Below, in pieces: positions 5,245 through 61,759 of a stretch of DNA of 64,000 bases (position 1 is its first letter; every line of letters begins with the position of its first letter). The position numbers were made by a program, and so were the translations under genes. A model generated the notes under the pieces. That model had not been told where the DNA came from. It searched no databases and saw only the letters and a program-made list of their open reading frames with translations. Origin of the DNA: Prevotella sp. (GTDB lineage Bacteria; Bacillota_I; Bacilli_A; ML615J-28; CAG-313); assembly GCA_023665755.1 (NCBI GenBank), contig JAMPDF010000001.1:344181-408180 (forward strand). The letters run 5' to 3'.

Positions 5245-5276
5245 GTTAGTGTAAATAAATGAAAGAGGTATTAAAT

Positions 5277-36364: not shown

Positions 36365-37069
36365 CTATTCAGGACAGACCCAAACAGGACATCCTGAAAT
36401 TTTTTGAATTTCTGTTTTAAATCTTTTTGCATCTGAATTTCCATTTGATAGATGCAGCAAATAGATTTCTTTTATTTTAGAAACGTCTTGTTCAACAATA
36501 AATTTTTTGACGTTTTCTAATTCAAAGTGGGATTTAAATAATCGTTTTGCCATTACATTGGTCAATTTCCCACTTTCTATATTTTTTTTAGCGATATCAT
36601 GTGCATAATTGCACTCAATCATCAAGTAATTAATTTGATCAAATCTATTCTTGATGTAATAAGTATCAGTTGCAAATAACAACGTTTTATTTGTTACCCT
36701 GCTTTTCAAATAATACCCAACAGGTTCTGCGGCATCATGTTCTGTTGCAAAAGGAATAACATCAAATGTACCAATGATGTATTTTTGGTTTGCTTTGATT
36801 ACTTTTGCATAGTTTTTAAACTGTTCACAATCAAAGTTATCAAATGTTCCTTGCGTTGCATATACTTCTTTGCAATTCTTTAACAATTTAACCAGTGATT
36901 TAGCATGATCCATGTGTTCGTGTGTGACTAGGCAGGCATCAAAGTCTAACCTAGTCTTTTCACGAATTTTATTTAAAGGTATGCCACATTCAAGCAGTAA
37001 AGTTGTTTTTCCGTCAGTGACAGAGTAACAATTGCCTTTACTGCTTGATGCAAAACTTTCTATCCACAT
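36365..37069 (-). CDS. MBL-fold metallo-hydrolase (putative recombination nuclease).
   Basis: HxHxDH motif VTHEHMDHAKSL. It is adjacent to RecT. Confidence 0.65.
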   Translation of the reverse strand: MWIESFASSSKGNCYSVTDGKTTLLLECGIPLNKIREKTRLDFDACLVTHEHMDHAKSLVKLLKNCKEVYATQGTFDNFDCEQFKNYAKVIKANQKYIIGTFDVIPFATEHDAAEPVGYYLKSRVTNKTLLFATDTYYIKNRFDQINYLMIECNYAHDIAKKNIESGKLTNVMAKRLFKSHFELENVKKFIVEQDVSKIKEIYLLHLSNGNSDAKRFKTEIQKISGCPVWVCPE

Positions 37070-38013
37070 TAGAAATATCCATTTCTTTGAGGCGCTTGTT
37101 GTTTTGGAGCAGTAGCTTCTGTATATGCTTTTAAAATATCCTCATTTTCGCCCATTTTTGGCTTTTCTTCTTCGACATTATTAGTTTTATCAAACGTTAG
37201 CATTTCGGCTTTATTTGCCTTATTTTCGACCTCGTTTCGCACTTCTTGAGCAGTTGATTCAACAAAATCTTGGTTTTGCATTTCGTATATCTCATCTTCA
37301 TTCTTAATAAGTGTTTCTGCAAGTAAGTCATCATCGTTTGACGTTTGAAGAATCATTTTGATCAAACGATTAATTGCTGTTCTCTTCATAAATTCACCTT
37401 CAAAATCTGTGTGATCTCTCTTATTACCCTTACTTGGATTTTTGAGCCAGGATTCTTTGATTTCAGATATCGTCATAACAGCACTTCTTTCAATTCCGTT
37501 TACAGTAACTGTTGCATACGCTCCTACACGTTTTCCTTTTAACTTGTTCTCCCAGCTTGTTTTGTGTGACAAAATAATTTCTTCGCCTAATTCGTTATGA
37601 TCCAGTTCTACTTCGTCACCTTCATAGATAATCGTTCCAATTGGCTCATTTTCAATTCCTTTTAATCTTTTGATGGAAGAACATTTGCCAAAATAGGATG
37701 TGTACCAACCAAGTTTATTGCCATATACGATGAAATACCCTTGTTTTTTCACAGGATTTAAGCCAAGAATTGCCATTTCTAAAAGAGAATTAACAACACT
37801 TTCTTTGGTGCAGACTTCTAAAGCTGGTCTACCATTGTTATCTTTCGTGTCTTGAATAATTAGCCAAGCAGAAGATAAAGCATTACCTGCAGAATAATTT
37901 TTAGGAAGGTCGAGCTTTCCTTGATTTGTTAGCTCAACAATTCTATTTAATACTTTTTCTGCTGGCGTTTTTTCCACTAATACTTGGTTTTGATTTTGTG
38001 TTTGAACTTGCAT
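37069..38013 (-). CDS. RecT-family single-strand annealing protein.
   Basis: 314 aa. Block SAWLIIQDTKDNNGRPALEVCTKESVVNSLLEMAILGLNPVKKQGYFIVYGNKLGWYTSYFG resembles the RecT core. Genomic context also fits. Confidence 0.55.
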   Translation of the reverse strand: MQVQTQNQNQVLVEKTPAEKVLNRIVELTNQGKLDLPKNYSAGNALSSAWLIIQDTKDNNGRPALEVCTKESVVNSLLEMAILGLNPVKKQGYFIVYGNKLGWYTSYFGKCSSIKRLKGIENEPIGTIIYEGDEVELDHNELGEEIILSHKTSWENKLKGKRVGAYATVTVNGIERSAVMTISEIKESWLKNPSKGNKRDHTDFEGEFMKRTAINRLIKMILQTSNDDDLLAETLIKNEDEIYEMQNQDFVESTAQEVRNEVENKANKAEMLTFDKTNNVEEEKPKMGENEDILKAYTEATAPKQQAPQRNGYF

Positions 38014-38015
38014 TT

Positions 38016-40016
38016 TTACTTAACCTCCATTTGTAGTTCTTTTTCGTTTTCTTTAACATATAATTTAATGAGTTGTGTATTTTCCAATTCATCAAATTTA
38101 GTCACACTTTCTGCGTTATCTATAAATATTGGAGCAATCGTTCCCTCAACTTTTTGCAAAGTTTTTATAATATCTAAACCAGCATTGATTTTTGCAGCAT
38201 TATTCGCATCATCAAATGGTACACCATCAATAGTGGCATAACATACTTCTTCATATCCACCATTAATTTGCTCTCTAAACATTGTGAAATTAACTTTGGT
38301 GAATAATTTGTTGACATCTTGTTCGATTAACTTCACTTTTTCTTTTAGGAATGATTCACATAGGTTTACTTTAACTATTGCTTGATTGTATTCATTAGAT
38401 AGTTGTTTTTGCTCCTGTTGTAATTCATTAATACGCTTTCTATTCGCAATATTGCTTTCATATCTAGATTTTCTGCCATAGTAGTCATCTAGTTTTTTGC
38501 TTTCTTGCATAATCGTTAAAGCTATATCTCCTGCGGAAGATGATTCACTCATCAATTGTTGCTTTTCTTCTCTTTTAGCAGCGATTTGATATTGAAGATG
38601 AATAATTTCATCTGTTGTTGACTTGAGGCATTGATTCTTTGCTTGCTCAAGTCTTTCTTCTGCTATAGTTAATTCTTGTTGCATTTCGCTAATTTTCGAT
38701 TGCATATTTATTGCTTCGATTTCATAGCTTCTTAAAGATAACTTTGAATTATTCAACTCATTTTGTATATTTCCATACTCAACTTTTAATTGCTTACCAT
38801 TTTCAATCGCTTTCTGTAATTTGTTCGCCTTGTCTAGGTTGAACATTTCTTTTGCGTGTTCAACTTGTTCTTGTGGCAATGCTTGTCCACAGGTAGGGCA
38901 AACTGTTTCGCCATTAAATACTGCGCCATCTATTTCAGCACATCTTTGATATGCTGTTTCAATAAGCTTGTCAAGATCTAAGATGCGTTCTTCTTGTCTT
39001 GATATAAGTGTTTCTGTATCTACCTTTTTCACCCCTATAGCTAATTTTTCGCCTTTTTTAAATTGAAGCGTTGTGGATAGATTTTGAACTTCTTCTTGAA
39101 GTTCTTTTAGTTTTGCACCATCATTTTCCATTTTCACTAATTTGGCTTGATGCAACTTTTCTTCTAACGCCAAAATTTCGCCATCTATCGCTTTTAATAT
39201 TGCAAGGTTAGTCTTTGTGTTCCTTTGCTCTTGAAGTTCCAAAATATAGTCTTTTTGGGCTTGAATTAACGTTTTAACGTCTTCTAAGCCACTTATATCG
39301 TCTTCCTCAGTTTCTGTATTGATCATAGATTGCAATTCTTCTATTTTGTATCCATAGGAAGGAATTTGCTTATTTGCTGTAGAAGCTGCTGCTTTGTATT
39401 TAGCTGTCAATTCTTCAATACTTAGCACTTTCAATTCCTCCAACAAAGGATACAAAGATGAATTTTTTTCTACTACATCTAAATTGGATACATCAGGAAT
39501 AGCCTTAAGCAACACCTCACGTTTTGTCTTTTTATCCATTTTGTTAAAGTAAAATGGGGCAGTGAGCATTTTGAAGGTATCTTCAGAACATAACTTGTCT
39601 ACTTCTTGTTGATATTCTTTTAACAATTTGGGCGCACCATCTTTAAAATAAGATGTTTCATGCCCTGTAAATGTGCTTTGTGTTTCACCGCGTTTTTTGG
39701 TGTATTTTTCACGTAGCACTTTTTTTAATTCCACATCGTAAGTTAACAATCCATCATCAACAGTGAATACAGCAGATACTGAATAATCAACATTGTGCAA
39801 GACATTGCCATTTGCATCAATTGGCTTAATGCTAAAATCGCTTGCCCCATTGCTGTTTTTGTTGAAAAGTAGCCAAAGGAATGCATCGACAATAGTTGTT
39901 TTACCTGTTGCATTGTCACCATAAAAGTTAACTGATTGATTTGCAAAATCGAAGGTTCTCTTTTTTATTCCTTTAAAATTCTGCAAAGTTAGATTTTTTA
40001 TTGTTATTTTTTTCAT
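38016..40016 (-). CDS. AAA ATPase with a long coiled-coil (SbcC/Rad50/RecN-like).
   Basis: Walker A GDNATGKTT at the N-terminus. About 350 aa of coiled-coil. ABC-signature-like C-terminus. Confidence 0.6.
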   Translation of the reverse strand: MKKITIKNLTLQNFKGIKKRTFDFANQSVNFYGDNATGKTTIVDAFLWLLFNKNSNGASDFSIKPIDANGNVLHNVDYSVSAVFTVDDGLLTYDVELKKVLREKYTKKRGETQSTFTGHETSYFKDGAPKLLKEYQQEVDKLCSEDTFKMLTAPFYFNKMDKKTKREVLLKAIPDVSNLDVVEKNSSLYPLLEELKVLSIEELTAKYKAAASTANKQIPSYGYKIEELQSMINTETEEDDISGLEDVKTLIQAQKDYILELQEQRNTKTNLAILKAIDGEILALEEKLHQAKLVKMENDGAKLKELQEEVQNLSTTLQFKKGEKLAIGVKKVDTETLISRQEERILDLDKLIETAYQRCAEIDGAVFNGETVCPTCGQALPQEQVEHAKEMFNLDKANKLQKAIENGKQLKVEYGNIQNELNNSKLSLRSYEIEAINMQSKISEMQQELTIAEERLEQAKNQCLKSTTDEIIHLQYQIAAKREEKQQLMSESSSAGDIALTIMQESKKLDDYYGRKSRYESNIANRKRINELQQEQKQLSNEYNQAIVKVNLCESFLKEKVKLIEQDVNKLFTKVNFTMFREQINGGYEEVCYATIDGVPFDDANNAAKINAGLDIIKTLQKVEGTIAPIFIDNAESVTKFDELENTQLIKLYVKENEKELQMEVK

Positions 40017-40028: not shown

Positions 40029-40286
40029 CTACTCCCCATTCAAATCGTATAGTTCGATAATGATTATTCTTCTATCTTGCTCATCGATTATTTCTTCTTT
40101 AATAAACGGAAAAGCGCCTATCAAAACACCTGTTCCTTTCTCATTTGCAAAGGCGATAGCCTTCATTGTTTGGTTGATTGCACCTGCTCCAATGCACTTG
40201 ATTTTGACATCTTCCTTCTGTATATTCTTCAATATATACGTTCCTAAAGCAGCTGGTTTGGTTTTGCTGCTACACTTTAAAATCAT
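40029..40286 (-). CDS. SpoVS (stage V sporulation protein S) family protein encoded in the phage early operon.
   Basis: 85 aa. KCIGAGAINQTMKAIAFANEKG...IIIELYDL aligns with B. subtilis SpoVS (AIGAGALNQAVKAVAIARGF...IKLIVEPR). A strong AGGAGG RBS precedes it. Confidence 0.6.
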   Translation of the reverse strand: MILKCSSKTKPAALGTYILKNIQKEDVKIKCIGAGAINQTMKAIAFANEKGTGVLIGAFPFIKEEIIDEQDRRIIIIELYDLNGE

Positions 40287-40302
40287 ATTTTCTCCTCCTT
40301 TA

Positions 40303-40458
40303 ATTTAATGATTTTGCCTTCTTGAGTGACTTCGATTAGCCCCTCTTTTATCTTTTTTTCTAACAAACTGTAAACAAAAATACCCATACGATCTAGAGAT
40401 TTTTGTTTTGATTCGTTATAAATTATTTCAATTTCGTTGTATAACTCTGTTTCCATTG
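40303..40458 (-). CDS. Small protein (51 aa) that was not in the ORF track. It is the first gene after the ribozyme.
   Basis: METELYNEIEIIYNESKQKSLDRMGIFVYSLLEKKIKEGLIEVTQEGKIIKL. Its stop overlaps the SpoVS RBS. Confidence 0.3.
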
Positions 40459-40607
40459 AATCTTCTCCTTTCTCTCAATCGTATGAGTATAATTTGTTAA
40501 ATATGCAAAGCTAGACTGTGCCTAATTAAGTTTAGCCATGATTGGTACAAAGTAATGTAGTTATTTCCTGGGGGGAAGCCATGGATAGACACTTTGCATT
40601 TGGCTTG

Positions 40608-40670
40608 TGCCAAGACCATCGCCATTTAGGCTAGGTTTCGCCTGAGTTGCACAGGCTCATCAGTTGGCTA
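40608..40670 (-). ncRNA. Hammerhead ribozyme, type I topology, in the early leftward transcript.
   Basis: Minus strand: UAGCCAA-CUGAUGA-GCCUG(UGCAACU)CAGGC-GAAA-CC..GGU-C-UUGGCA. The full conserved core is present (CUGAUGA, GAA, G10.1-C11.1, A15.1-U16.1, GUC cleavage triplet). Stem II is 5 bp. Stem I is UUGGC/GCCAA. Stem III is ACC/GGU plus an inner GCC-UAAAU-GGC. Confidence 0.6.
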
Positions 40671-40722
40671 TTTGTCAATGTTACAATTGTTTTTTGCTTT
40701 TCAGTCATGAAAATAGAGACAA

Positions 40723-40911
40723 TTATTTTAAAAAAATATTGATATCAACATTGTAATGGCTAGCAATTATTTGAACTTCGCTAAATTTAAATTCTGTTTT
40801 TCCCTTCATTTTATGATATAAAGATGTAACATGAATATTTAACAATTTAGCAATATCTTCTTGGGTATCGCCATGTTCTGCCATTAAACCTTTTAATTTT
40901 GAAATGTTCAT
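40723..40911 (-). CDS. Cro-like XRE-family HTH regulator.
   Basis: 62 aa. HTH QEDIAKLLNIHVTSLYHKMKG. Confidence 0.6.
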   Translation of the reverse strand: MNISKLKGLMAEHGDTQEDIAKLLNIHVTSLYHKMKGKTEFKFSEVQIIASHYNVDINIFLK

Positions 40912-44751: not shown

Positions 44752-44783
44752 CTTGACTAATTTGTAAAAATTTGTTATAATAT
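44752..44783 (+). promoter_or_regulatory. Consensus-like promoter TTGACT-17-TATAAT immediately after the integrase gene.
   Basis: TTGACT at 44752..44757 and TATAAT at 44775..44780. A hairpin plus T-run follows at about 44815..44880. Confidence 0.35.
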
Positions 44784-44879
44784 AATAGCAGTTAGAATTT
44801 CTAAGCTGTATACCTATGGCAGTGAATTAACGTTTAAACGATATGTAATATCGTCACCCATAGGGTTCTTCTTCTTATT

Positions 44880-45632
44880 TTAATAATAAGTATATGCAAT
44901 AAAAAAATCCAATTTCTTTTGTGAAGTTGGATTTTTTTTGTCTTTTGTCGCCCAGACAAATACCTGAGATCCGTACATAATTAAATAGCCTATTCCATAT
45001 CTTGATACAATAAATTCTCCTACAATAACACCTACCCAAGACATCCCAATATTGATTTTAACAATACTGACTAGATTAGTCAAATTAGCAGGTAAAATAA
45101 GTTTGGTTAAAATTTGCCATTTACTGGCTTTAAAACTTTGTAACATTTTTATTTTTTCTTCTTCTACTTGTACAAATGCACTATGAGCTGATATGATAGT
45201 GAGCACCAGTGAAATAGAAATAGCTACTGCTGTAATCCCCTTAATGCCTGTGCCTATCCAAATGATAATGATTGGGGCAAGTGCCGTTTTTGGAAGTGCA
45301 TTAAATACAACTAAAAACGGATCACATATTTTTGCCAATGTTTTATTCCACCAAAGAGCAATGGCTATCCCTATTCCTGCTAGTGTTCCAATGATTAGCC
45401 CTAGCATAGTCTCTAATACAGAAATGCCAATATGCTTATAGATTTCTTTTGTCTCAATATATCTTTTTAACAATGCCCCTATTTTAGATGGCCGGCTAAA
45501 TAAAAATGCATCAATAATTTCAAATCGAGAACATAATTCCCATGAAACAAGAAACACCACCAAGAGAAGGATTTGAGTGATTAAGACCGTTATTGCTTTC
45601 TTTCTTTTTTCAATTAAATATGGATTATTCAT
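44880..45632 (-). CDS. ABC transporter permease (SsuC/ThiX-like). Its 3' end has been replaced by phage-derived codons.
   Basis: Six-TM permease body. The last 17 codons (..KNPTSQKKLDFFIAYTYY) run into phage att-arm DNA. The true C-terminus is at 4965..5087. Confidence 0.65.
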   Translation of the reverse strand: MNNPYLIEKRKKAITVLITQILLLVVFLVSWELCSRFEIIDAFLFSRPSKIGALLKRYIETKEIYKHIGISVLETMLGLIIGTLAGIGIAIALWWNKTLAKICDPFLVVFNALPKTALAPIIIIWIGTGIKGITAVAISISLVLTIISAHSAFVQVEEEKIKMLQSFKASKWQILTKLILPANLTNLVSIVKINIGMSWVGVIVGEFIVSRYGIGYLIMYGSQVFVWATKDKKNPTSQKKLDFFIAYTYY

Positions 45633-46359
45633 TCAATAGCCCCCATATTTCATCAAAATAAATTCGAAATTCTTTAGATAAACGTTTAGCGTAGGGTGTA
45701 TTCTCAGTTGTATCTGTTACAATGGGAATAATCTTTTTAAGTCTAGCAGGCCTGTGACTCAATACAATGACTCGATCTGCCATCGCTATAGCTTCTGATA
45801 TATCATGTGTAACCAAAATTGCTGATACATGTGAATCTTTAATCATTTGATGAATATCATCACTTACTGTAATTCGCGTTTGATAGTCTAGTGCTGAGAA
45901 TGGCTCATCTAGTAATAAAACATCTGGGTTAGTTGCAAGTGTTCTAATTAATGCTATTCGTTGTCGCATTCCACCTGATAGTTCTTGAGGATAATTATTG
46001 ATGAAATCTGATAAATCGTATTTTTTCAATAGATCTCTGATTTTTTCTAATTTTTGATCATCAATATCTTTTTTTATTTCTAAACCAATTAGAATATTTT
46101 TCCACACTGTTCGCCAATTGAATAAGTGATCTCTTTGAAACATATACCCAATATCTCCATCAACAATAATTTCTCCTTCTGTTGGATCCAATAATTTGGA
46201 AATAATATTTAGCAAAGTAGATTTTCCAGAACCACTTGGACCAACTATTGCTATAATTTCTCCTTCTTCTAAATCAAATGAAATATCATCTAAAACATCA
46301 AGTGCACCTATTTCAGTATAGAAAGTCTTTTTTACATTTTTCATCTCTAGCTTCTTCAT
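45625..46359 (-). CDS. ABC transporter ATP-binding protein (NitT/TauT family, SsuB-like).
   Basis: Walker A GPSGSGKST, signature LSGGMRQR, Walker B LLLDEP. RBS AAAGAGGCGAGGA before the MKKLEM start. Confidence 0.85.
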   Translation of the reverse strand: MKKLEMKNVKKTFYTEIGALDVLDDISFDLEEGEIIAIVGPSGSGKSTLLNIISKLLDPTEGEIIVDGDIGYMFQRDHLFNWRTVWKNILIGLEIKKDIDDQKLEKIRDLLKKYDLSDFINNYPQELSGGMRQRIALIRTLATNPDVLLLDEPFSALDYQTRITVSDDIHQMIKDSHVSAILVTHDISEAIAMADRVIVLSHRPARLKKIIPIVTDTTENTPYAKRLSKEFRIYFDEIWGLLNE

Positions 46360-46509
46360 TATCCTCGCCTCTTTCAAGTACACTTTATCATATTCATTAA
46401 ATTCTATTTCGTGTGGGCAAAAAAACCCTGTTCATTTTAGAACAGGGTGATGATATATTTTTTCATTTTTCAATATGAATAGGTCTTACAATATACGATT
46501 AATTATCTA

Positions 46510-49257
46510 TCAATATCTAATTTTTCTGATTTGTGGAGTTTTCTTTTTTTCTTGCTCTACTTGATTATTTTTCAAACGTTCTTGTTTTAATTCTATGTTT
46601 TTCAGCAATAATTCAACTCCAAGCATTGAGGTTAATGAAATAACTACCATACTGAACGTAAGCCATAGAGCCGTGGCATTTGTGATGGTTTGTCCATCAC
46701 GTATGACTTTGCATGCTAAATCAGAATATTCAAATAGATTATAAAAACTAATGGTTCTTCCTCCAAGTCGCCATGAAACCTTGAAAATAGATAGACAAAT
46801 TAACGTAAGTGAAAGAACCCACATTCCCATACAAAGAATGGTCTTTTTCCTATCGAGTGGCATACATGCTCTACACATTACAATCAAAAGCGTGAGTGTT
46901 GCGGTAAGTGAAACTACTGTTTTAATTTCTGCTGGTGTGAATCCATAATCATTTGAAAGTAAATAAGTAAATATAATAGCAACTACAATACCAGATGCAC
47001 CTGGAAGTGCGCTCTTTAACGCATTTTTCATAAAGTTTCCTTTGATTGGAGAATTGTTGCTTTGCAAAGATAAAATGATTGATGGTAATCCAATAGCAAA
47101 CATTTCAACAATTAACAATTGCTTTGCTCCAGCAAATGGGAAGGTACCATTTGTCGTACCAGAACTTGTTAGTTTGAAGAATCCAACAGCAGTTAAAATT
47201 GCTAAAAAAGTCATGAAAAGGGTTTTTACCAAATACAACATAGCCGTTTGTTGCACATTATTGATAACTCTTCTTCCTTCTGCCACAACCTTTGGCATAT
47301 TTGCAAAATTAGAATCTACCAACACCAATTGTGCCACACTCTTGACAGAATCATTTCCTGATGCCATTGCTATACTACAGTCAGCCGCCTTTAATGCAGG
47401 AATATCATTTACACCATCGCCTGTCATAGCTACTGTCTTGCCCGCATTCTGCAATGCAGTGACTAACAATTTCTTTTGTTCTGGTTTTACGCGCCCAAAT
47501 ACAGTAAATTTAGTTGCCGCCTCAATTACTTCTTCATCTTTCATACCATCTAAACTAATACACTTTTCTGCATTTTCAATACCTACTCTTCTTGCTACTT
47601 CCGCAACAGTCACTGGATTATCACCAGAAATAACTTTTACTTCTACCCCACTTTTTTTGAAGTATTGAATTGTGTCAAATGCTTCATCACGAATTTGATC
47701 TTCAATCAAAATTAGGGCAATCAGTTTAGGCATTCGTTGAATTTTATCATTTTTAATCGGAAGTGTGGATTGAGCAAGACAAAGTACACGAAGTCCTTGA
47801 TTGGCATAGGCAGTGATTTGATCAGCATAACGTTCAAAATTACTTTTTAAGACAAACTCAGGAGCCCCCATAATGTACGTTTCTCCTTCACCAAAAGAAA
47901 CAGCACTAAATTTTCGTTCTGAAGAAAATGGGATAACTTCCGTTGGTTTCAAAACCGGTGTTGCACCAAAATAATGTACCATTGCTTGTGCTGTTGCGTT
48001 GGTTTCTTGTAGTGCCGCATTCATTGAACTCATAATATTTTCAATACTAAATTTGATTGGCTTATTGATGGTTTCATATTTGACAACGCTCATTCTTCCA
48101 TTGGTAATTGTTCCGGTCTTATCTAAACAAAGCACATTCACTCTAGCTAACATTTCAATACAATAAATATCTTGAACCAGTGTATTATTCTTAGATAGTC
48201 TAAATACACCTACAGAAAGAGCTACTGAAGTAAGCATATAAAGACCCGCTGGAATCATCCCAATTATCGCTGCGGTTATTGGGCGAATGGATTGGACATA
48301 ATTCACTTTTAATCTTTGGATCATATCTGCGGTGGCTTTCCAATTAACTTCCTTGATTTCCTTAAATGTAGCCCAATCAAAAGTCCATAAAAACATCGCA
48401 ATAGATGTCAAGACAATGAATATCGCAATAACAACCAATAGTTTTCGCAAGCTGCCTAAAATTTGTGAATTCGGTGCAGTATATTTTTTCGCTTGAGAGG
48501 TTAATTTATTGATTTCATTTAACCTACCTACATGAACTACTTTAGCATAACTTGTCCCAGAAACCATAAAACTACCTGAGTAAATCATATCTCCAACATG
48601 TTTTTTAATTGGTACAGATTCCCCTGTGAGTTGTGATTCATTGACTTCAATTTCACCCTCAAGCAAAATAGCATCAGAAATGATTTGTGACCCTGGAGTT
48701 AAAAACACGACATCATCTAAAACCACATCAGTATCAAGTTTTGATACCTTTACACCATTTCGAATAACCGTTACTTTAGGATTAGTAACCAAGCGTAGTT
48801 TATTAATCGCCAATTTTGATTTTGTTTCTTGAACAATACCAATAATCAAATTAATGGATACAATCACCAAAAACATAAAATCGGTAATAGCAAATCTTTG
48901 ATCTGTAAGTTCTGGATTATTCCACTTCATCGCAATTAGCAATAAAATAAGTACAATAATATATAAAATATTAAAAAAAGTGAATGTATTTTTCCAAATC
49001 ACTGATAAAATCATTTTTAGATTTTTTTCAAATGGAGATTGAATCTTTCCATCAATATTGACTTGAAGATGTTCAATTCGTTCTTCTACTTCTTCGTCTG
49101 TCAATCCTTGTAAATAATTACCTGATTTTTGATAAAGTGGTTGATTTCTTTCTTCTTGATATACACCATATGTAATGTTTTTTTTCTTTTTTGGTTTCTT
49201 CTGTTCTTCTACTTTATCGTTTGGAGCAGATATCATATTTTCTTGTTTTTCTTTCAT
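46510..49257 (-). CDS. Cation-translocating P-type ATPase (P2/P3-type, Ca/Mg-like).
   Basis: DKTGTIT, TGDGVNDIPAL and 10 TM segments. 915 aa. Confidence 0.85.
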   Translation of the reverse strand: MKEKQENMISAPNDKVEEQKKPKKKKNITYGVYQEERNQPLYQKSGNYLQGLTDEEVEERIEHLQVNIDGKIQSPFEKNLKMILSVIWKNTFTFFNILYIIVLILLLIAMKWNNPELTDQRFAITDFMFLVIVSINLIIGIVQETKSKLAINKLRLVTNPKVTVIRNGVKVSKLDTDVVLDDVVFLTPGSQIISDAILLEGEIEVNESQLTGESVPIKKHVGDMIYSGSFMVSGTSYAKVVHVGRLNEINKLTSQAKKYTAPNSQILGSLRKLLVVIAIFIVLTSIAMFLWTFDWATFKEIKEVNWKATADMIQRLKVNYVQSIRPITAAIIGMIPAGLYMLTSVALSVGVFRLSKNNTLVQDIYCIEMLARVNVLCLDKTGTITNGRMSVVKYETINKPIKFSIENIMSSMNAALQETNATAQAMVHYFGATPVLKPTEVIPFSSERKFSAVSFGEGETYIMGAPEFVLKSNFERYADQITAYANQGLRVLCLAQSTLPIKNDKIQRMPKLIALILIEDQIRDEAFDTIQYFKKSGVEVKVISGDNPVTVAEVARRVGIENAEKCISLDGMKDEEVIEAATKFTVFGRVKPEQKKLLVTALQNAGKTVAMTGDGVNDIPALKAADCSIAMASGNDSVKSVAQLVLVDSNFANMPKVVAEGRRVINNVQQTAMLYLVKTLFMTFLAILTAVGFFKLTSSGTTNGTFPFAGAKQLLIVEMFAIGLPSIILSLQSNNSPIKGNFMKNALKSALPGASGIVVAIIFTYLLSNDYGFTPAEIKTVVSLTATLTLLIVMCRACMPLDRKKTILCMGMWVLSLTLICLSIFKVSWRLGGRTISFYNLFEYSDLACKVIRDGQTITNATALWLTFSMVVISLTSMLGVELLLKNIELKQERLKNNQVEQEKKKTPQIRKIRY

Positions 49258-49396
49258 GGTTCTCTCCTTTCACTTCTTTTTTTATCATTATAACACTAAA
49301 TGTAATTTTTATAAAGCAACATGCTAAAAATATTTTTATCGTATTTAGAGTGTTTTTCATGTTTTCGTGATAAAATGATTGAGGAGGTATTATCTT

Positions 49397-50095
49397 ATGA
49401 ATTATCCAATTATTGGCATTAGCCCCCGTTTTTCCAAAGAAGAAAAGTCGGGTTATTCCTTTCTAAAAGTCAACCAAGATTATATCAAGCAAATCATCAA
49501 CCGAGGTGCTATTCCTCTAATTTTACTTCCCTCTAATGGTTTGGAAGCGATGCTTTCACAGTGTGATGGCTTTTTAATTATTGGAGGCGATGATATCAAT
49601 CCCACCTATTATGGTAAAACCAATGATGCAAATCTATCTAAAGGAATTGACCCGGTAACCGATGAAGTTGATCAAAAAATCATTCAATATGCAACTGCCC
49701 ATCAAATTCCAACATTTGGGATTTGCCGAGGTATTCAGGCATTTGCGGCATTTATGGGAGGAACACTTCATCAAGATTTAGCTACTGAACAAGTAAGCCA
49801 CCCCATTCCATTAGAAAAAAAGCATTATGTAACTTGTGTAAATAAGACTCCCCTTACTAATTTACTACCCGAAAAATTCCTAGTCAATACATTTCACCAC
49901 CAAGCTGTTCATCATATTCCTGAAGGTTTTATTGCGACTTATCAAAATGAAGGGACAATTGAGGCGATAGAACATACACAATGGCCTATCTTTGGAGTAC
50001 AATGGCATCCAGAACGATATTACACAGCAGAATCTGCTATTATTTTTGATTATTTTATGGAGAAAGTCAATGAGTATCGAAAAAAGCATATCTGA
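49397..50095 (+). CDS. Class I glutamine amidotransferase-like peptidase C26 / gamma-glutamyl hydrolase family protein.
   Basis: Catalytic GICRGIQ and HH..H blocks. RBS GAGGAGG 9 nt before the ATG at 49397. Confidence 0.7.
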   Translation: MNYPIIGISPRFSKEEKSGYSFLKVNQDYIKQIINRGAIPLILLPSNGLEAMLSQCDGFLIIGGDDINPTYYGKTNDANLSKGIDPVTDEVDQKIIQYATAHQIPTFGICRGIQAFAAFMGGTLHQDLATEQVSHPIPLEKKHYVTCVNKTPLTNLLPEKFLVNTFHHQAVHHIPEGFIATYQNEGTIEAIEHTQWPIFGVQWHPERYYTAESAIIFDYFMEKVNEYRKKHI

Positions 50096-50609
50096 AAAAG
50101 TGATCTTTAACGGAAAAATTGTTCAACTTGTTTTACGAGATGTCTTATTGCCTAATGGAAATGTTGCAAGACGTGAAATTGTTCACCATCAAAAAGCCGT
50201 AGCCATAGTGGCTTTTGATGGTAGCCATATTTTAATGGTTCAACAATATAGAACGGCTGTTGGAAAATATATGCTAGAAATTCCCGCTGGCTTATTAGAG
50301 GCAAATGAAGATGCTTTAGTATGTGCTCATCGTGAGTTGCAAGAAGAAACTGGTTATGATGCAAAACAAATGGAATTGCTTTGTTCTTTTTATCCTTCCT
50401 GTGGATTTACTGATGAGGAAACTTATATTTATCTTGCAACCGATTTATATGAAAGTAAGTTGCCTGAAGATGAAGATGAATTTATTGAACTTACCAAATT
50501 ACCTCTTCCTTCTATTCCTACTTTCTTATCACAAAATGATACTTTAGATGGAAAAACGGCTCTTGGTCTTTCCTTATTTGCCTTGTGGCGACAAAAAAAG
50601 AATTTATAA
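50070..50609 (+). CDS. NUDIX hydrolase (ADP-ribose pyrophosphatase-like).
   Basis: Nudix box GLLEANEDALVCAHRELQEETGY. It overlaps the upstream gene by 26 nt. Confidence 0.75.
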   Translation: MSIEKSISEKVIFNGKIVQLVLRDVLLPNGNVARREIVHHQKAVAIVAFDGSHILMVQQYRTAVGKYMLEIPAGLLEANEDALVCAHRELQEETGYDAKQMELLCSFYPSCGFTDEETYIYLATDLYESKLPEDEDEFIELTKLPLPSIPTFLSQNDTLDGKTALGLSLFALWRQKKNL

Positions 50610-50648
50610 AAAAGGTATGATTTCAAATGAAGTCATACCTTTTTATGA

Positions 50649-52709
50649 TTAGTTCTTTTTATATTCTGCTACAATCTTTTCCACCAATTGACTTGGGACA
50701 TCATCATAACGTGCAAACTTACGTGTAAATTTACCACTTCCTTGTGTCATCGCCTTTAAATCAATAGAATAATTGATAATTTCCGCCTCTGGAATATATG
50801 CGGTAATAGCCGTTCTACCCAATTCAGTTGGCTCCATTCCTATTACTGATCCCCTCCTTTGTGGAATGTCCCCCATAACATCTCCTACAAATTCATCTTT
50901 TACCGTAATAACAACCTCCATAACGGGTTCTAAAATAGTTGGTTTAATAACTTTGCATGCTTCTTTAAAGGAAAGTGCTGCGGCTATTTTAAAGGAAATT
51001 TCATTTGAATCCACTGGATGATAAGATCCATCATATAATACAGCTCTCACACCAATTACTGGAAATCCTGCTATTGGACCATGTTCTAGTGTTTCAATTA
51101 GCCCCTTTTCTACTGCAGGGAAGAAATTCTTAGGCACAGCTCCTCCCACTACTTCTGACGCAAATTCAAATTCTTTATCTGCCAATGGTTCGAATCGAAT
51201 CCATACATCACCAAACTGTCCAGCTCCACCCGATTGTTTTTTATGTCTTCCTTGGGCTGAACCTGTTTTACGAATTGTTTCACGATAGACAATTTTTTGG
51301 TCAGAAGTAGTCACATCAACCTTAAACATATTCTTCATTTTTTCTAAAATATACCCAAGATGTGTCATACCTTGACCACCAATTAATAATTGTGCCGTTT
51401 CCGGATTTCTTCTAATTTCAAATGTTGGATCTTCCAAATTTAATTTTTGCAATGCTGATGATATTTTGTCCTCATCTTGCTTTGTCTTGGCTTGGATAGC
51501 AATATAAATAACTGGTGTTGGCATTTCCATTGGTGGATACATTACCGCTTCTTTTTTTGTACATAATGTTTGTCCAGTTTGAATATCCCCTGATTTAGTC
51601 AATACACCGATATCTCCTGCATGTAAAACTTCAATAGGAATTTGCGTCTTTCCCATAATGCAAGAAATCACACCAACTTTTGTCATTTGATCGCTATTTG
51701 GAATATAAACCTCAGTCAATCCTTGAGTTGTACCTGAGCATACCTTAAAGAAATTAATTGTTCCTAAGAATGGATCCACTATCGTTTTAAATACATAAGC
51801 CGAAAATGGTTCTGTATCTATCGTATCTCGCAATATCAATTGATGTGTTTTAGGATCAAAACCCTTGGATGGCTTTAAATCTTGTGGTGAAGGTAAATAA
51901 TTGCAAATTTTTTGAAGGAGCCCCCTTAACCCCATATTTTTGCTAGCACAACCAATTAAAATTGGAAATATATCACAATTCAAAAGAGCCTTCCGTAATC
52001 CTTCAATAATCTCTTCATCTGTCAACGTTTCACCACTGAAATATTTTTCTAGCATTTCCTCACTTTCACCCGCAACGATTTCGACAAAATGATCATAGAG
52101 TTCGTCAACTTGAGACATATAGGCATCTGGAATCATTGTTTCTGTTTCCTCTTGTCCCATATAAGCCTTTTTCTCAATAATGTCAATATATCCTTGGTAA
52201 TGATTCTCTGTACCTAGTGGAATCACAAAAGGAACTACTTTAGGTCCGAATCCATCTATTACGTTTTGAATCACTTTCTCAAATTTTACATTTTCTTTAT
52301 CCATTTTATTAATGAATAAAATAGTTGGTGTATGTCTCGTTCGAAGTTCATCCCAAACTCTCTCAGTACCCACTTCAATACCCTTTTGCGCATCAATAAC
52401 TACAACAGAACCTTTTACTACCGCTAAATCTTGTGTAATTTCCCCTACAAATTCCTCTGAACCAGGTGTATCTAAAAAATTAATTTTATAGTTTTTCCAC
52501 TCTACTGGAATAATAGATGTGGATAATGAAGTTTGTCTTGTTTGTTCTTCTTGCAAATAATCTGATACAGTATTCTTTTTTTCTACTTCTCCCTTTTTAG
52601 GAATCGCCTTCGTAAGATACAACATTGACTCACAAATAGTTGTTTTTCCTGAGCCCATATGCCCCAAAACGGCCACGTTCCGGATTTTTTCAGTTGAATA
52701 GATTTTCAT
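50649..52709 (-). CDS. Elongation factor G family GTPase paralog with divergent G motifs.
   Basis: Five-domain EF-G-like length. The G1 motif is GHMGSGKT rather than AHIDAGKT. The G3 motif is DTPGSEEF rather than DTPGHVDF. RBS AAGGAGGAG before the MKIYS start. Confidence 0.7.
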   Translation of the reverse strand: MKIYSTEKIRNVAVLGHMGSGKTTICESMLYLTKAIPKKGEVEKKNTVSDYLQEEQTRQTSLSTSIIPVEWKNYKINFLDTPGSEEFVGEITQDLAVVKGSVVVIDAQKGIEVGTERVWDELRTRHTPTILFINKMDKENVKFEKVIQNVIDGFGPKVVPFVIPLGTENHYQGYIDIIEKKAYMGQEETETMIPDAYMSQVDELYDHFVEIVAGESEEMLEKYFSGETLTDEEIIEGLRKALLNCDIFPILIGCASKNMGLRGLLQKICNYLPSPQDLKPSKGFDPKTHQLILRDTIDTEPFSAYVFKTIVDPFLGTINFFKVCSGTTQGLTEVYIPNSDQMTKVGVISCIMGKTQIPIEVLHAGDIGVLTKSGDIQTGQTLCTKKEAVMYPPMEMPTPVIYIAIQAKTKQDEDKISSALQKLNLEDPTFEIRRNPETAQLLIGGQGMTHLGYILEKMKNMFKVDVTTSDQKIVYRETIRKTGSAQGRHKKQSGGAGQFGDVWIRFEPLADKEFEFASEVVGGAVPKNFFPAVEKGLIETLEHGPIAGFPVIGVRAVLYDGSYHPVDSNEISFKIAAALSFKEACKVIKPTILEPVMEVVITVKDEFVGDVMGDIPQRRGSVIGMEPTELGRTAITAYIPEAEIINYSIDLKAMTQGSGKFTRKFARYDDVPSQLVEKIVAEYKKN

Positions 52710-52886
52710 ATGTAATCTCCTCCTTATGCCATTCAATTCTCGTCTTAATAGTGCTGACATTAGTATTATATACTAGATATTCAATATTTTCAATTAAATA
52801 AATAATTTTTTTGAAAGCGCATACATTTTAATGAAAGCGCGTTCATTTTTGAGCAAAAAAAGAGAATTTTTTCAAATTCTCCTTTT

Positions 52887-53210
52887 CTATAATTTATAAT
52901 AACTTTCTACATCTAATACAAAAATAGTGGCACCATTGATTTTTACGCTTGCTGGAAAATTAGAGAATACAGTAAAGTCACCTGGTTCTCCTGATGCAAC
53001 CTTCTTTTTCCTTGTTTTCGAATATGTATTGATTATTTCTTTTACATCATCTATCTTACTTTCATCTAAGCCTACAAGTAGTGTTGTATTTCCACTCGGC
53101 AAAAGCCCTCCTGTTGTAGACAATTTTGTGAAGAAGAATTTTTCTTTTAAAAGTGCATTGGTTACCCCTTGCACATCATCATTGCTAATAATGATTAACA
53201 TCAGTTTCAT
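52887..53210 (-). CDS. darA: PII-like c-di-AMP receptor DarA/PstA family protein.
   Basis: 107 aa. TKLSTTGGLLPSGNTTLLVGLDESKIDDV...ATIFVLDVE aligns closely with B. subtilis DarA. Confidence 0.65.
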   Translation of the reverse strand: MKLMLIIISNDDVQGVTNALLKEKFFFTKLSTTGGLLPSGNTTLLVGLDESKIDDVKEIINTYSKTRKKKVASGEPGDFTVFSNFPASVKINGATIFVLDVESYYKL

Positions 53211-53351
53211 ATCATCACCTCAGTTTATTTTACCATATTTTGACTAAAAAGTAAAGAAATACGTCCCCCTATGCCACTGCATACCTGAATCGAAAGCCTT
53301 TACATTGAAGAAAAACACTTTTTTTGATATAATAAGAGAAAGAGGTGGATT

Positions 53352-54842
53352 ATGCATTCAAAAAAAATACTGATTAATCATTTATTATTCATTCTTATTT
53401 TATTCACTTATACTTGGACGTTATTTAGTTGTACAATTCAAAAAGCCAATTATTTGGAACAACCTGTTGCCATTGTATATAAAAAAAATATTCCTTATAT
53501 TATAAATACAAGATTGCAGCGTTTTAGTCTAGAAGAATATGATTATATCGTTCCTTACTTTGACGATATTTTAATTGTGAAAAAGAATAACTTATTTGGG
53601 TATATCAAGAATACTGGTGAAGTATTGATTGAACCGATTTATAACGAGGCCTATCCTTTTTCTGAAGGAAAAGCAATCGTCAAAAAAGATGGAATAACCA
53701 AAATTATTGATTCAAACAATAATACCTTATACGAACTACCTGTTGGTTATACATCTATTAGCTCTTTCTCAAATGATTTACTTGTAATTGGTGATGGTAC
53801 CAAACAGGGATATCTAAAGTATGATTCAGAAAGTCAATCATTTTATTTCTTATATTACAGTAAAGATGCTGAGAACAATGAAATCAATTACTTTCCCTAT
53901 GAATTCTGTGGGAAATTCAAAAATGGCTATGCTGTAGTAGGATATACTGATTCTTATAATCAGTTTAAATATACTCATATTGATCAAAATGGGAAACGTC
54001 TTTACGATTTAGAATGGGATTATGCTAGTGATTTTTCTGAAGGGTATGCGGTAGTTGGCGACTATGGTGCATATGATGTTTATTACTGGGTCAATAATGT
54101 TTCTACACCTAGCACAACTGAAAGTACAACCATTCAATCAATGAGTTACAAATACATTTCTCCAGAGGGAAACTATTTGGGTAGTAGCCGTATCAATATC
54201 AATGGTGAGACTGAAATTACACCTTATATCTATTCACAAGCTTATGATTTTAAAGATGGAGTGGCAATCGTTTCTAAAATGTATTGTTATCGAGATCGCC
54301 AATATAGTAGTGTCCCTGTATCTAGTGATGACTTTTATCACAATTATCGCATCATTAACCAAGAAGGCGAAGAAATATTTAGTTATTTTTTAAGTCGAAC
54401 CAATAATGTACGTCCTGGTGCTGGATTCTATTATTTAGATTTATTCCAACTCAACGATTATTATGTTCTATCCTATTATAAATCTTATATTCAAATTTTT
54501 TATAATCCTATCCATGAATTAGAACCTTATACATTTAAAGAAGCAGATTTACAGCTAGATTTAGATGAAGAATGGATTAATGATTATCTCAACGAATATA
54601 CAGCTGGAAATCAAACCCCAAATTATGTGAAAGACCATACTCGATATCCTTATAGTCAAACTGCATTTAAGCAATCTAGATACTTGAATAATATCTATGT
54701 TGCTAAAACGCAAGTATTTAGCGGATATTATGATTCATGTGGTTTGATTACACTTCAATTTGAAACCAATGCGGAAAACGATTCGCAAACGCTCATCAAA
54801 CAATATGTGATTCCACCAGTATATGACGATATTATTTTTTAG
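53352..54842 (+). CDS. Secreted or membrane-anchored WG-containing-repeat protein.
   Basis: N-terminal TM/signal. Repeated FGYI..G...IEPIY..A..FSEG.A.V modules. Confidence 0.45.
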   Translation: MHSKKILINHLLFILILFTYTWTLFSCTIQKANYLEQPVAIVYKKNIPYIINTRLQRFSLEEYDYIVPYFDDILIVKKNNLFGYIKNTGEVLIEPIYNEAYPFSEGKAIVKKDGITKIIDSNNNTLYELPVGYTSISSFSNDLLVIGDGTKQGYLKYDSESQSFYFLYYSKDAENNEINYFPYEFCGKFKNGYAVVGYTDSYNQFKYTHIDQNGKRLYDLEWDYASDFSEGYAVVGDYGAYDVYYWVNNVSTPSTTESTTIQSMSYKYISPEGNYLGSSRININGETEITPYIYSQAYDFKDGVAIVSKMYCYRDRQYSSVPVSSDDFYHNYRIINQEGEEIFSYFLSRTNNVRPGAGFYYLDLFQLNDYYVLSYYKSYIQIFYNPIHELEPYTFKEADLQLDLDEEWINDYLNEYTAGNQTPNYVKDHTRYPYSQTAFKQSRYLNNIYVAKTQVFSGYYDSCGLITLQFETNAENDSQTLIKQYVIPPVYDDIIF

Positions 54843-54851
54843 AGGTGCAAG

Positions 54852-57395: not shown

Positions 57396-57404
57396 GAGGC
57401 CACT

Positions 57405-59888: not shown

Positions 59889-59892
59889 AGCA

Positions 59893-59922
59893 TAAAAAGC
59901 AGTCAAATGACTGCTTTTTTGT
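59893..59922. terminator. Bidirectional rho-independent terminator.
   Basis: GCAGTCA..TGACTGC hairpin flanked by A and T runs. Confidence 0.5.
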
Positions 59923-59927
59923 ATGTT

Positions 59928-60638
59928 TTACTTTTTCTTTTTATGATTCATTTTTTCCTCTAATGATAACAAATACCGCTTCATATGCGTATTGATTTTT
60001 ATTATTGGAGAAAAAATGTTTTCTTTTTTTACTTTTTCTACAAAAGACTGTGCTTGTTGTTTAAAATTCATTAATATAATGCGTTCATGAATTCGCATAG
60101 CATAGGCTTTAATTTTATGCATCACATCAAGAGAAACAATCATATCAATTAAAAATATACCCATATATAACCCCATCATAAATATGCCAATGGGTTGATT
60201 AGCCATATAATGAGCAAGTGGTGCTAACCAAGGATAAATTGCGTAATAAAAGCCAATAGAAAATAGTCCCCAAACTAATGAAAATAATGGACAAATGATG
60301 CCTTTATAATTTCCCCATTCCTTAGAATAATCCCATAACATAATATGATATACTTTTACAAAGAAAATACCTGTAATTAGTTCCAATATAGTCATAATTA
60401 CTGCCGATGTAATAAATATACAAAGACATTTTAAAATGGGTTCTTGAATCAAGGATAAATCAGCTTGGCAAATACAATACATAATTAGTCCACCACAACC
60501 ATAAATAGGAAGTGAACATCCATGCATAAAACCTGGATTAATCAATCGTTTATTTCGGATACTTCGAAAAATTACTTCATTTATCCACCCTGCTACACAA
60601 CAAAACATAAATACAAATACAATTTCAAAAAAATACAT
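59928..60638 (-). CDS. Polytopic membrane protein (DUF1113 / putative ABC-transporter type IV-like).
   Basis: Motif WINEVIF...GCSLPIYGCGG. 236 aa with multiple TM helices. Confidence 0.35.
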   Translation of the reverse strand: MYFFEIVFVFMFCCVAGWINEVIFRSIRNKRLINPGFMHGCSLPIYGCGGLIMYCICQADLSLIQEPILKCLCIFITSAVIMTILELITGIFFVKVYHIMLWDYSKEWGNYKGIICPLFSLVWGLFSIGFYYAIYPWLAPLAHYMANQPIGIFMMGLYMGIFLIDMIVSLDVMHKIKAYAMRIHERIILMNFKQQAQSFVEKVKKENIFSPIIKINTHMKRYLLSLEEKMNHKKKK

Positions 60639-60652
60639 TATTCAATATCCTC

Positions 60653-61696
60653 CTAAAAAATAGGTAATTGTAAAGCAAGTTGTACCAATAAATACATTAT
60701 TGGAAAACTGATAAGACAAATGAGTGTAGATAGTAAACACATTTGACTAGACAATGATGCTTCTGTATCAAATTGTGAAGCATATGTATTAACTACAGCT
60801 GAAAGAGGTGCCCCAAAACCAATGACAAGGGTTGCTAAGGAAAATGGACCAAGATGAATAATCTGCAAAGCCTGTAAAACGATTAATATCAATAATACCA
60901 AAAGTGGAATAACAATGGTTCTAAGCATAGCTAACATCCAAGCTGTTTTATTCTTCATTGCATCCCCTATTTTTTCCTCACCCAAAACACTTCCTACTAA
61001 AATCATTGCTAGAGGCGTGGTTAGACTTTTTGTTACATCTAGTACTTGATAAAGGGCAGGTAAAGTTTGATCAATTCTAAAAATAGAATAATCAATTTGA
61101 TTGATTGATACCTGAGGAGCAATGTTTTGCGTTAACCATATCAATAATCCGATGAACATCGCAATCATAATCGGATTTAAAACAATTTGGCGAAGAGATG
61201 ATTTTAAATTTTCAGAATTAAACTGCAATTTAGACATCACCAAATAACAATAAATATATAGAATGAAACGAAATACGATTGTGACCATATTGGCATAAAT
61301 CATAATTTCCCCACCATAAATAGCTAAAAGTACGGGTATAGAAAAAAAGGTGAATTGTCCAACTGTCATCAATATGCTATAAATTCTTCGCTTTTCTTTT
61401 CCCTTTCGAAAGAAAAGCAACTGTCCCATTAGTAAAAAGAATATATAAAATACAATAGAAAGAACGAGGACTACCAGATGTTCTAAGAAAGTCTCAGCAT
61501 GAAAATCCGTCATAAAACTATTGAATGCCATCGCTGGAAGGGCTACTTTGAGTGTCAAAAAAGTGATTACCTTTTTTCCATCATGATTCAATATTTTATA
61601 ATGTGCTAAAACAAAGCCCAGTAAAATAAATGCTAGTGAAATAAGTATGGCTGATAAAAACTGTTTGTCTTTGAGTATAGAGAAAATTGCTTCCAA
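60653..61696 (-). CDS. AEC (auxin efflux carrier / malate permease-like) family transporter.
   Basis: 347 aa with about 10 TM helices. The N-terminal block is typical of Mem_trans. Confidence 0.6.
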   Translation of the reverse strand: MEAIFSILKDKQFLSAILISLAFILLGFVLAHYKILNHDGKKVITFLTLKVALPAMAFNSFMTDFHAETFLEHLVVLVLSIVFYIFFLLMGQLLFFRKGKEKRRIYSILMTVGQFTFFSIPVLLAIYGGEIMIYANMVTIVFRFILYIYCYLVMSKLQFNSENLKSSLRQIVLNPIMIAMFIGLLIWLTQNIAPQVSINQIDYSIFRIDQTLPALYQVLDVTKSLTTPLAMILVGSVLGEEKIGDAMKNKTAWMLAMLRTIVIPLLVLLILIVLQALQIIHLGPFSLATLVIGFGAPLSAVVNTYASQFDTEASLSSQMCLLSTLICLISFPIMYLLVQLALQLPIF

Positions 61697-61759
61697 TATA
61701 GGACCTCCATTTCTTCTTATCTATTATATCATAACTATATCCATATTTCAATCATTGCG

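Follow-up and report, generated by a model that had tools for sequence, protein, structure and literature searches.

Hammerhead Motif in the Early Region of a Prophage

The DNA analysed in this study is a 64,000-nucleotide (nt) stretch of contig JAMPDF010000001.1 (positions 344,181 to 408,180), referred to in its full length as the window, which includes a prophage. Within the early leftward operon of this prophage, the minus strand carries a 60-nt element (40668..40609) that, judged by every sequence-level defining feature, is a genuine and evolutionarily conserved type I hammerhead ribozyme. The element lies in a 266-nt gap between open reading frames (ORFs; 40457..40722), and all genes around it are encoded on the same strand. 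The gene upstream (40723..40911, minus strand) encodes a 62-amino-acid (aa) Cro/C1-type helix-turn-helix protein with matches to Pfam HTH_3 (29 bits) and to PHROG transcriptional repressor families. Downstream, also on the minus strand, lie a 57-aa ORF with no family (40283..40456) preceded by the Shine-Dalgarno sequence AGGAG (40469..40465), a SpoVS-like protein (40029..40286), an SbcC-like AAA ATPase (38016..40016), RecT (37069..38013), and a metallo-beta-lactamase-fold protein. The opposite strand encodes a cI-like repressor and a serine integrase. An exact look-up of the 57-aa protein returned no record.

A preliminary description of the locus had placed the motif in a non-coding, GC-richer gap between a cro gene and a small ORF, SpoVS, SbcC-like, and RecT operon. 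The gap is indeed non-coding and the element has a G+C content of 52%, against about 32% for the window. The gene order also agreed, with an HTH_3 (Cro/C1-type) gene on one side and the named genes on the other; the point in need of qualification was the name cro. A Cro identity is suggested by the 62-aa HTH_3 product, and several other genes separate this Cro-like gene from the cI-like repressor in the window. In the related loci L144 and L146, described below, the Cro-like homologue is found inside a short operon divergent from the repressor.

A simple scan of the 266-nt gap detected no promoter-like or terminator-like site. Promoters based on TTGACA (40677..40672) or TTGCAT (~40508) were discarded, as neither is followed by a -10 box at 16-18 nt and the spacers in relatives measure 18-22 nt. 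A 42-aa ORF (40497..40625) was likewise rejected as a gene; no Shine-Dalgarno sequence precedes it, its ATG falls within the non-conserved loop of stem III, and relatives carry non-triplet indels.

Sequence and Predicted Fold of the Element

By direct reading, the minus-strand sequence is GCCAA-CUGAUGA-GCCUG(UGCAACU)CAGGC-GAAA-CC-UA-GCC-UAAAU-GGC-GAU-GG-U-C/UUGGC, with the slash at the predicted cut, and it contains the full set of hammerhead invariant nucleotides in the correct order. The first part of the core, CUGAUGA (C3 U4 G5 A6 U7 G8 A9; 40657..40663), was recognised by direct reading and by a descriptor scan, and the second part, GAAA (G12 A13 A14 and A15.1; 40636..40639), is invariant in all relatives. 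Stem I is formed by GCCAA (40664..40668) and UUGGC (40613..40609), and stem II is a hairpin of GCCUG and CAGGC around the loop UGCAACU (40640..40656), supported by both reading and fold. Stem III (40615..40636) comprises ACC/GGU (A15.1-U16.1 and two C-G pairs), an internal loop UA/GAU, an inner helix GCC/GGC, and a terminal loop UAAAU, as given by the minimum free energy (MFE) fold. The helices thus measure 5 base pairs (bp) in stem I, 5 bp in stem II, and 3+3 bp in stem III, and the closing pairs G10.1-C11.1, A15.1-U16.1, and U1.1-A2.1 are intact. With U16.1 at 40615 and C17 at 40614 the cleavage triplet is GUC, and hammerhead numbering places the predicted cleavage site after C17 (40614) and before U1.1 (40613), so that the 3' strand of stem I, UUGGC, would become the 5' end of the downstream RNA. 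Loops close stems II and III while the 5' and 3' ends lie in stem I, which is the type I topology; direct reading, the descriptor scan, and the match to a covariance model of viral hammerheads (R1, below) concur on it. Base for base, these readings reproduce the complete and ordered core, the 5-bp stem II with G10.1-C11.1, the A15.1-U16.1 pair, the GUC triplet, the cut between 40614 and 40613, and the type I topology of the preliminary description.

The MFE structure computed with RNAfold contains stems II and III, which answers the earlier concern that stem III might fail to form, and for a transcript ending at the stem I 3' strand the complete hammerhead is itself the MFE fold (-19.0 kcal/mol). 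Loop II, UGCAACU, is similar to the consensus UGARAYU of a wider viral family. A 4-nt UGCA/UGCA pairing between loop II and the 3' tail is possible, and on inspection the sequences of relatives contain no covarying partner for it. In addition, a small 4-bp hairpin, CAAU-UGUAAC-AUUG, lies 5' of stem I (40689..40676) and has no conserved equivalent in L120, L140, or L148.

The type I descriptor scan found this one site only on both strands of the window. Among 3000 simulated windows (64 kb, first-order Markov, same composition), 80 contained a relaxed match and nine a match at least as good as the one observed, with stem II of at least 5 bp, stem III of at least 3 bp, and stem I of at least 5 bp as criteria. 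The bare motif has therefore about a 0.3% chance per window, which is suggestive but not decisive at genome scale. Since the motif alone could arise by chance, conservation in relatives decides the question.

Conservation in Related Phages and Prophages

Related loci were obtained through the neighbouring proteins and not through the RNA (L119, L120, and L137-L151; n=16). Cluster mates of the SpoVS-like protein and RecT led to two Logan contigs (L119 and L120), the alignment of the 57-aa ORF to six IMG/VR loci and 15 proteins, and four protein look-ups to L143-L151. In 14 of the 16 loci, a hammerhead scoring 19.5-44 bits with R1 directly precedes the 57-aa ORF homologue; the contigs of the remaining two, L143 and L151, end before the ribozyme position. 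Fifteen homologues of the 57-aa ORF are known, and a hammerhead and a leader, described below, precede each of them wherever upstream sequence exists.

Nine distinct ribozyme sequences are represented among these loci. Stem II occurs in three versions, all fully paired: GCCUG/CAGGC (window and L119), GUCGU/ACGAC (L120 and L146), and GUCUU/AAGAC (L140, L138, and L148). Four of its five pairs have changed on both sides, and G10.1-C11.1 is invariant. Stem I is invariant among these close relatives and covaries in the wider viral family. The core is constant apart from N7, where U7 is replaced by C (CUGACGA) in four variants. Orthologous hammerheads with CUGACGA are present in L125, L129, L131, L134, L144, and L145. 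Position N7 is the free position of the hammerhead core. A core that varies at N7 only offers a neat internal control for selection.

Stem III follows a common layout, ACC-[UA]-GCC..GGC-[GAU]-GGU in the window and ACC-[UA]-GAGC..GCUC-[RAU]-GGU in most relatives. The general form, ACC-[UA]-helix-[RAU]-GGU, was present in 11 other distinct sequences, in which all three pairs of the inner helix covary and are 100% paired, and it recurs in the unrelated viral contigs L121, L123 (two copies), L126, and L136. Because of this recurrence with a covarying inner helix, the comparison indicates that the short interrupted stem III is a selected design and not a sign of decay. In a 12-sequence alignment (A4), 96.4% of cells were paired and eight of 16 pairs were changed on both sides, a level reached by none of 500 shuffles; slid registers fell far below. 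Orthologous copies whose substitutions obey hammerhead rules thus uphold the identification made in the preliminary description.

The two Logan contigs differ from the window in stem III. In L119 (~1017..1120) and L120 (~5272..5376), a stem III of the form CCGCU...AGCGG encloses an insert of about 100 nt that is absent from the window. The insert has nested helices with four compensatory pairs between both copies according to RNAalifold, and it may possibly act as a control domain of the ribozyme. No Rfam family matched the insert, and a metagenome scan returned no further copies of an insert-bearing stem III.

The genes on either side of the ribozyme are variable. The upstream gene is Cro-like in the window, L122, L144, and L146, a 77-aa ORF in L148, and in L120 an unrelated 62-aa ORF that terminates at a UGA within CUGAUGA; the genes after SpoVS in relatives are either SbcC/RecT or ERF. 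From this variation, the conserved unit read from these loci is the hammerhead, the leader, the 57-aa ORF, and SpoVS. Small ORFs for Arc/CopG-like ribbon-helix-helix proteins were observed downstream of the hammerhead-leader unit in L119 (1269..1841) and upstream of it in L148 (947..1078, as in L149), with a further one in L143 (1..105). Their insertion on either side suggests that the hammerhead-leader unit moves as a block relative to neighbouring modules. The ribozyme has been kept in about a dozen related phages while its flanking modules change.

No hammerhead was found in the loci of distant Cro-like relatives (L097-L107) or of one SbcC-like relative (L108). Neither the 266-nt gap, searched against GenBank phages in distant mode, nor the surrounding 8 kb, searched in near mode, retrieved a match.

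A Wider Viral Family with the Same Core and Stem II

A search of IMG/VR with the pattern CUGAUGAGCCUG-N3-12-CAGGCGAAAC, which carries no stem I or stem III information, returned 96 stretches. Among 64 parsed instances, 61 distinct ones had an open stem I of 4-6 bp (5 bp in 48), a closed stem III, and a GUH triplet (GUC in 57), and most of these hammerheads are placed between a stop codon and the next start codon. In an alignment of 52 of the viral sequences (A1), stems I and III covary, with 98.4% of cells paired, 156 double-change cells, and none of 500 shuffles as high. The covariance model R1, built from 52 viral type I hammerheads with the window sequence left out, gave a single match in the window, at 40606..40671 on the minus strand (57.5 bits, rough E of 1e-16). 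The stems, the GUC, and the loop II similarity are independent of the pattern with which the family was fished.

Matches to CUGAUGAGCCUGUGNAAYUCAGGCGAAAC in genome_contigs were confined to Legionella, in ten species (L109-L118), so that by sequence match the core and stem II of the element are also present in a distant bacterial genus. This outcome also places the source genome outside the GTDB representatives. An identical core and stem II (CUGAUGAGCCUG..CAGGCGAAAC) link the element to about 60 distinct IMG/VR hammerheads as well as to the copies in 10 Legionella species.

In several unrelated viral hammerheads (L007, L038, L055, L088, L090, and L001), a repeat of the stem I 5' strand comes after the stem I 3' strand, with a short loop between them. 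The resulting putative post-cleavage hairpins covary, for instance UACGG-AAUCCA-CCGUA and AUGGG-AAUCCA-CCCAU, with UUGGU-AAUUAA-GCCAA in L001. An alternative downstream partner for the stem I 3' strand was, across the family, not significantly enriched (14/58 against 9.6 +/- 2.6 in controls), and a family-wide rule that this strand always has such a partner was discarded on that count.

Rfam Scores and Annotation of Short Phage Hammerheads

At Rfam gathering thresholds no hammerhead was detected in the window, where the sole match was a DUF3800-I RNA, and a whole-window Rfam scan at E<=1 detected no ribozyme. The best local scores below threshold were 21.2 bits for RAGATH-1-hammerhead (RF03152; gathering 56.3) and 19.9 bits for Hammerhead_3 (RF00008; gathering 48.5). 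The check with Rfam covariance models proposed in the preliminary description was thus formally failed. However, the test turned out to be invalid for the short phage class. The orthologues of the element also score low in Rfam (21-32 bits), and 10 of 10 viral control loci with canonical, covarying type I hammerheads (L001, L006, L010, L014, L019, L021, L022, L045, L067, and L072) give no Rfam gathering match. Because these ten textbook hammerheads are missed too, the Rfam negative carries little weight; a gathering score is a curated threshold and not a defining biological feature. Rfam thresholds are insensitive to the short phage type I class, which constitutes a systematic annotation blind spot. 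Given that one pattern retrieved about 60 IMG/VR examples and that none of the 10 tested loci was called by Rfam, annotation pipelines can be taken to under-report these ribozymes.

Two weak matches were set aside. A type III reading, drawn from the sub-threshold RF00008 alignments, has no stem I hairpin between the would-be cut and CUGAUGA and a would-be stem III that is mostly mispaired. A preQ1-II match at 40454..40539 (18.8 bits, E=1.2) is an artefact of the purine-rich ribosome-binding site.

The RNA Downstream of the Predicted Cut

The 3' strand of stem I has a second potential partner. A hairpin UUGGC-ACAA-GCCAA (40600..40613, minus strand) competes with stem I and is the MFE choice once transcribed; with the next 13 nt transcribed, its fold reaches -21.6 kcal/mol against -20.3 kcal/mol for the hammerhead fold. 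This alternative hairpin is kept in L119 and L120 (with the loop AUUAA in L120). The L140 and L146 types instead engage the GGC or UGGC of this strand in the helix that closes the leader, and a long-range helix takes up these nucleotides in the L122 type as well.

The stretch of 157 nt that runs from the cut to the start codon is conserved. Most of this interval is occupied by a structured leader of about 110 nt (40503..40613 in the window) with counterparts in L119, L120, L140, L144, L146, and L148. Its conserved structured part (40503..40599, minus strand) is predicted to contain a long-range helix P1, in which AUGCAAAG (40599..40592) pairs with CUUUGCAU (40510..40503), a helix P2 (GUCUA.CC with GG.UAAAC), an invariant segment GGCUAAACUUAAUU (40537..40524), and a P3 hairpin UAGGC-ACA-GUCUA (40524..40512), together with a variable C-rich hairpin. 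The long-range helix covaries, being AUGCAAAG/CUUUGCAU in the window and L119, AUGCAGAG/CUCUGCAU in L120, GGCAAAGAGU/ACUCUUUGCU in L140, and UGGCAAGAG/CUCUUGCCA in L146 and L148, and the ACA-loop hairpin does so as well (UAGRC-ACA-GUCUA against UGAAC-ACA-GUUCA). RNAalifold predicted 17 pairs for the leader, three of them with compensatory changes, and several of its G-U pairs are compatible with the minus strand only. The structure is kept here as a candidate because only about four independent sequence types are represented. No matching Rfam family was found for the leader, its motif retrieved nothing in the metagenome scan, and an exact 27-mer was absent from viral_contigs.

Proposed Role and Alternative Explanations

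Prophage hammerheads have been proposed in general to act as processors of transcripts (PMC3088659, PMC6765202), cutting long transcripts, and in vitro cleavage has been shown for other prophages (PMC3088659). In a halovirus, the 5' end of an early transcript has been mapped to a point at most 3 nt away from where a hammerhead cuts (PMC3088659). The best reading of the element, which we consider highly probable, is that a functional type I hammerhead constitutively cuts the early leftward operon of the prophage during transcription. On the nascent polycistronic RNA, the 60-nt element would fold into the three-helix hammerhead and cut itself after C17 (40614/40613). The upstream Cro-like message would be freed with a 2',3'-cyclic phosphate end, the downstream RNA would begin with 5'-OH-UUGGC, and the products would part as stem I melts, since this stem has only 5 bp. 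The freed UUGGC could then be captured by a downstream partner, the hairpin UUGGC-ACAA-GCCAA here and the leader closing helix in sister phages. Through this capture, the mature 5' end of the 57-aa/SpoVS/SbcC/RecT message would be base-paired and would head the structured leader of about 110 nt. As a result, the regulator message and the recombination-operon message would no longer be coupled in their stability or translation. It is plausible, by analogy with the proposal made for prophage hammerheads (PMC3088659), that the cut separates the Cro-like message from the recombination operon. The motif, the fold, the conservation, the covariation, and the synteny are shown by the analysis, and cleavage in vivo, refolding, and an effect on expression are inferred.

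A more elaborate version seems doubtful, although it merits mention. Here the hammerhead would serve as the 5' processing device of the new structured leader (40613..40503), with cleavage triggering a refolding that forms the mature, base-paired 5' end and switches on or stabilises the 57-aa/SpoVS/recombination operon, and the insert of L119 and L120 would make cleavage conditional, as in a natural allosteric hammerhead.

Several points weigh against constitutive cleavage by a functional ribozyme. Stem I (5 bp) and the core-proximal part of stem III (3 bp, ahead of a 2x3 internal loop) are short, and inspection by eye revealed no convincing tertiary contact between loop II and stem I. Every Rfam hammerhead model stays below its gathering score, and part of the 57.5 bits obtained with R1 is circular, because the family was fished with the element's own core and stem II. 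Mg2+-dependent cleavage at 40614/40613 is predicted from sequence for the element and its relatives alike. That the Cro-like gene and the downstream operon share a transcript is an assumption, supported only by a gap in which the simple scan detected neither promoter nor terminator. The alternative hairpin, more stable by 1.3 kcal/mol in the calculated folds, could also inhibit cleavage instead of following it.

Some of these features would also suit a decaying or catalytically dead relic, descended from a phage hammerhead that has lost a useful cleavage rate. The split stem III (3 bp, internal loop, 3 bp) and the absence of an evident tertiary contact would fit such a history; L119 and L120 have a stronger stem III of 6 bp, of which the window version could be a deletion derivative, and phages are known to carry core or stem variants that cleave slowly (PMC3088659). 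However, the same short stem III design, with its covarying inner helix, occurs in 11 other distinct sequences, some of them in unrelated viral contigs, which points to selection, and the core nucleotides are all intact, with variation in the lineage at N7 only. We therefore regard a relic as improbable. A coincidental match, or a DNA-level element (an operator or promoter, for example) with a resemblance to a hammerhead, is the least probable of all and can be given hardly any weight. The bare descriptor does occur in about 0.3% of random 64-kb windows, TTGACA lies just upstream (40677..40672), and regulatory genes adjoin, but orthologous conservation, compensatory changes in the RNA helices, and G-U pairs that are sensible on the minus strand only are at odds with it. 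Furthermore, no -10 box follows TTGACA, the gap scan returned no promoter, and the stems covary, where a protein-binding DNA site would be expected to conserve its sequence.

The competition for the stem I 3' strand raises the question of regulation. In such a switch, whether the ribozyme folds would be decided by the pairing of UUGGC with its alternative partner or, in L119 and L120, by the insert of 100 nt in stem III, and cleavage would depend on transcription speed, a protein, or a ligand. The calculated energies of the two folds are close (-20.3 and -21.6 kcal/mol), every lineage has a downstream partner for the stem I 3' strand in one of two different solutions, the insert of L119 and L120 has its four compensatory pairs, and regulated cleavage has been suggested for phage hammerheads (PMC3088659). 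However, co-transcriptional folding favours cleavage first, because the alternative partner is located 3' of the ribozyme. Alternative partners are also not significantly enriched in the wider viral family (14/58 against 9.6 +/- 2.6), no known aptamer in Rfam matches the insert or the leader, and the insert is absent from the window. A regulated switch is accordingly given only a slight chance here, and constitutive co-transcriptional cleavage is retained as the preferred reading.

Comparison with Known Hammerheads

Prophage hammerheads have been known since 2011, and hundreds have been described, yet reviews call their biological purpose not concretely defined (PMC6765202). The element shares with the type I hammerheads of prophages and phages (Perreault et al. 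2011, PMC3088659; Rfam clan CL00010) the same core, a three-helix junction, and an open stem I. It also shares with them an intergenic sense-strand position in a phage operon, near an integrase-bearing prophage (PMC3088659), and a proposed role in which polycistronic RNA is cut into operon-length pieces (PMC3088659). It differs from them in falling below all Rfam gathering scores, in its short stem III with a conserved UA/RAU internal loop, in being a single copy and not one of several that flank genes, in its coupling to a conserved structured leader, and in its Mollicutes-related host. What it adds is a subfamily with the UA/RAU stem III loop that lies below Rfam thresholds. Less ordinary are the unclassified leader coupled to stem I and the structured stem III insert of about 100 nt in L119 and L120.

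Among Rfam models, RAGATH-1 (RF03152) gave the best full-length alignment of the element (model positions 1-77, 21.2 bits, E=0.28 in a 351-nt search). The two are alike in their type I form, their 5-bp stem I, and a closed stem III with a top like GCC-AAUA-GGC. RAGATH-1 has a conserved hairpin 5' of stem I, and in the window a small hairpin lies at that place. However, stem II of the model is nearly absent (GACU..C, with one annotated pair), whereas that of the element has its full 5 bp and 7-nt loop, amounting to a 12-nt insertion relative to the model, and the 5' hairpin of the element is not conserved in relatives. The full stem II, the unconserved 5' hairpin, and a score far under the gathering value of 56.3 indicate that the element is not a RAGATH-1 variant.

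The HHphage hammerhead of haloviruses HF1/HF2 (PMC3088659) likewise directly precedes the opening gene of an early polycistronic transcript, with a mapped 5' end no more than 3 nt from the cut, and provides a precedent for a ribozyme that sets the 5' end of an early mRNA (PMC3088659). It differs in its archaeal viral origin, its variant core and structure, its requirement for high Mg2+, and its distance of 13 nt to the start codon (PMC3088659), whereas the element has a canonical core and a 157-nt leader after the cut. Discontinuous or large-loop hammerheads, such as those of mouse 3' untranslated regions (cited via PMC3088659), are comparable to L119 and L120 only, where one helix contains a long insert that could modulate folding. 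The helix concerned there is stem III, with a structured insert of about 100 nt, and the window copy is without it.

The locus offers a clean and testable setting, in which a single canonical ribozyme occupies a fixed boundary between a Cro-like regulator and early recombination genes and is joined physically to a conserved leader, the folding of which is in competition with stem I.

Host Assignment and a Second Structured RNA

The chromosomal proteins flanking the prophage in the window cluster at 90% identity or more with proteins of metagenome-assembled genomes (MAGs) of Anaeroplasma bactoclasticum (Mollicutes). Proteins identical to those of the window (host genes 44880..64000) have been deposited under the MAG labels 'Prevotella sp.' and 'Staphylococcus sp.'. 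Because of the clustering with Anaeroplasma bactoclasticum at no less than 90% identity, these labels are probably wrong and look like binning errors. On this protein evidence, the prophage host is a Mollicutes MAG related to Anaeroplasma, and hammerheads can be added to prophages whose flanking chromosomal proteins match this Mollicutes genus.

The DUF3800-I RNA (RF02969) that was the only Rfam match of the window is located at 44781..44902 on the plus strand (72.8 bits; gathering 44.2). It lies directly after the stop codon of the serine integrase (44750), at the junction between prophage and host, and the adjacent ORFs encode ABC-transporter components and not DUF3800.

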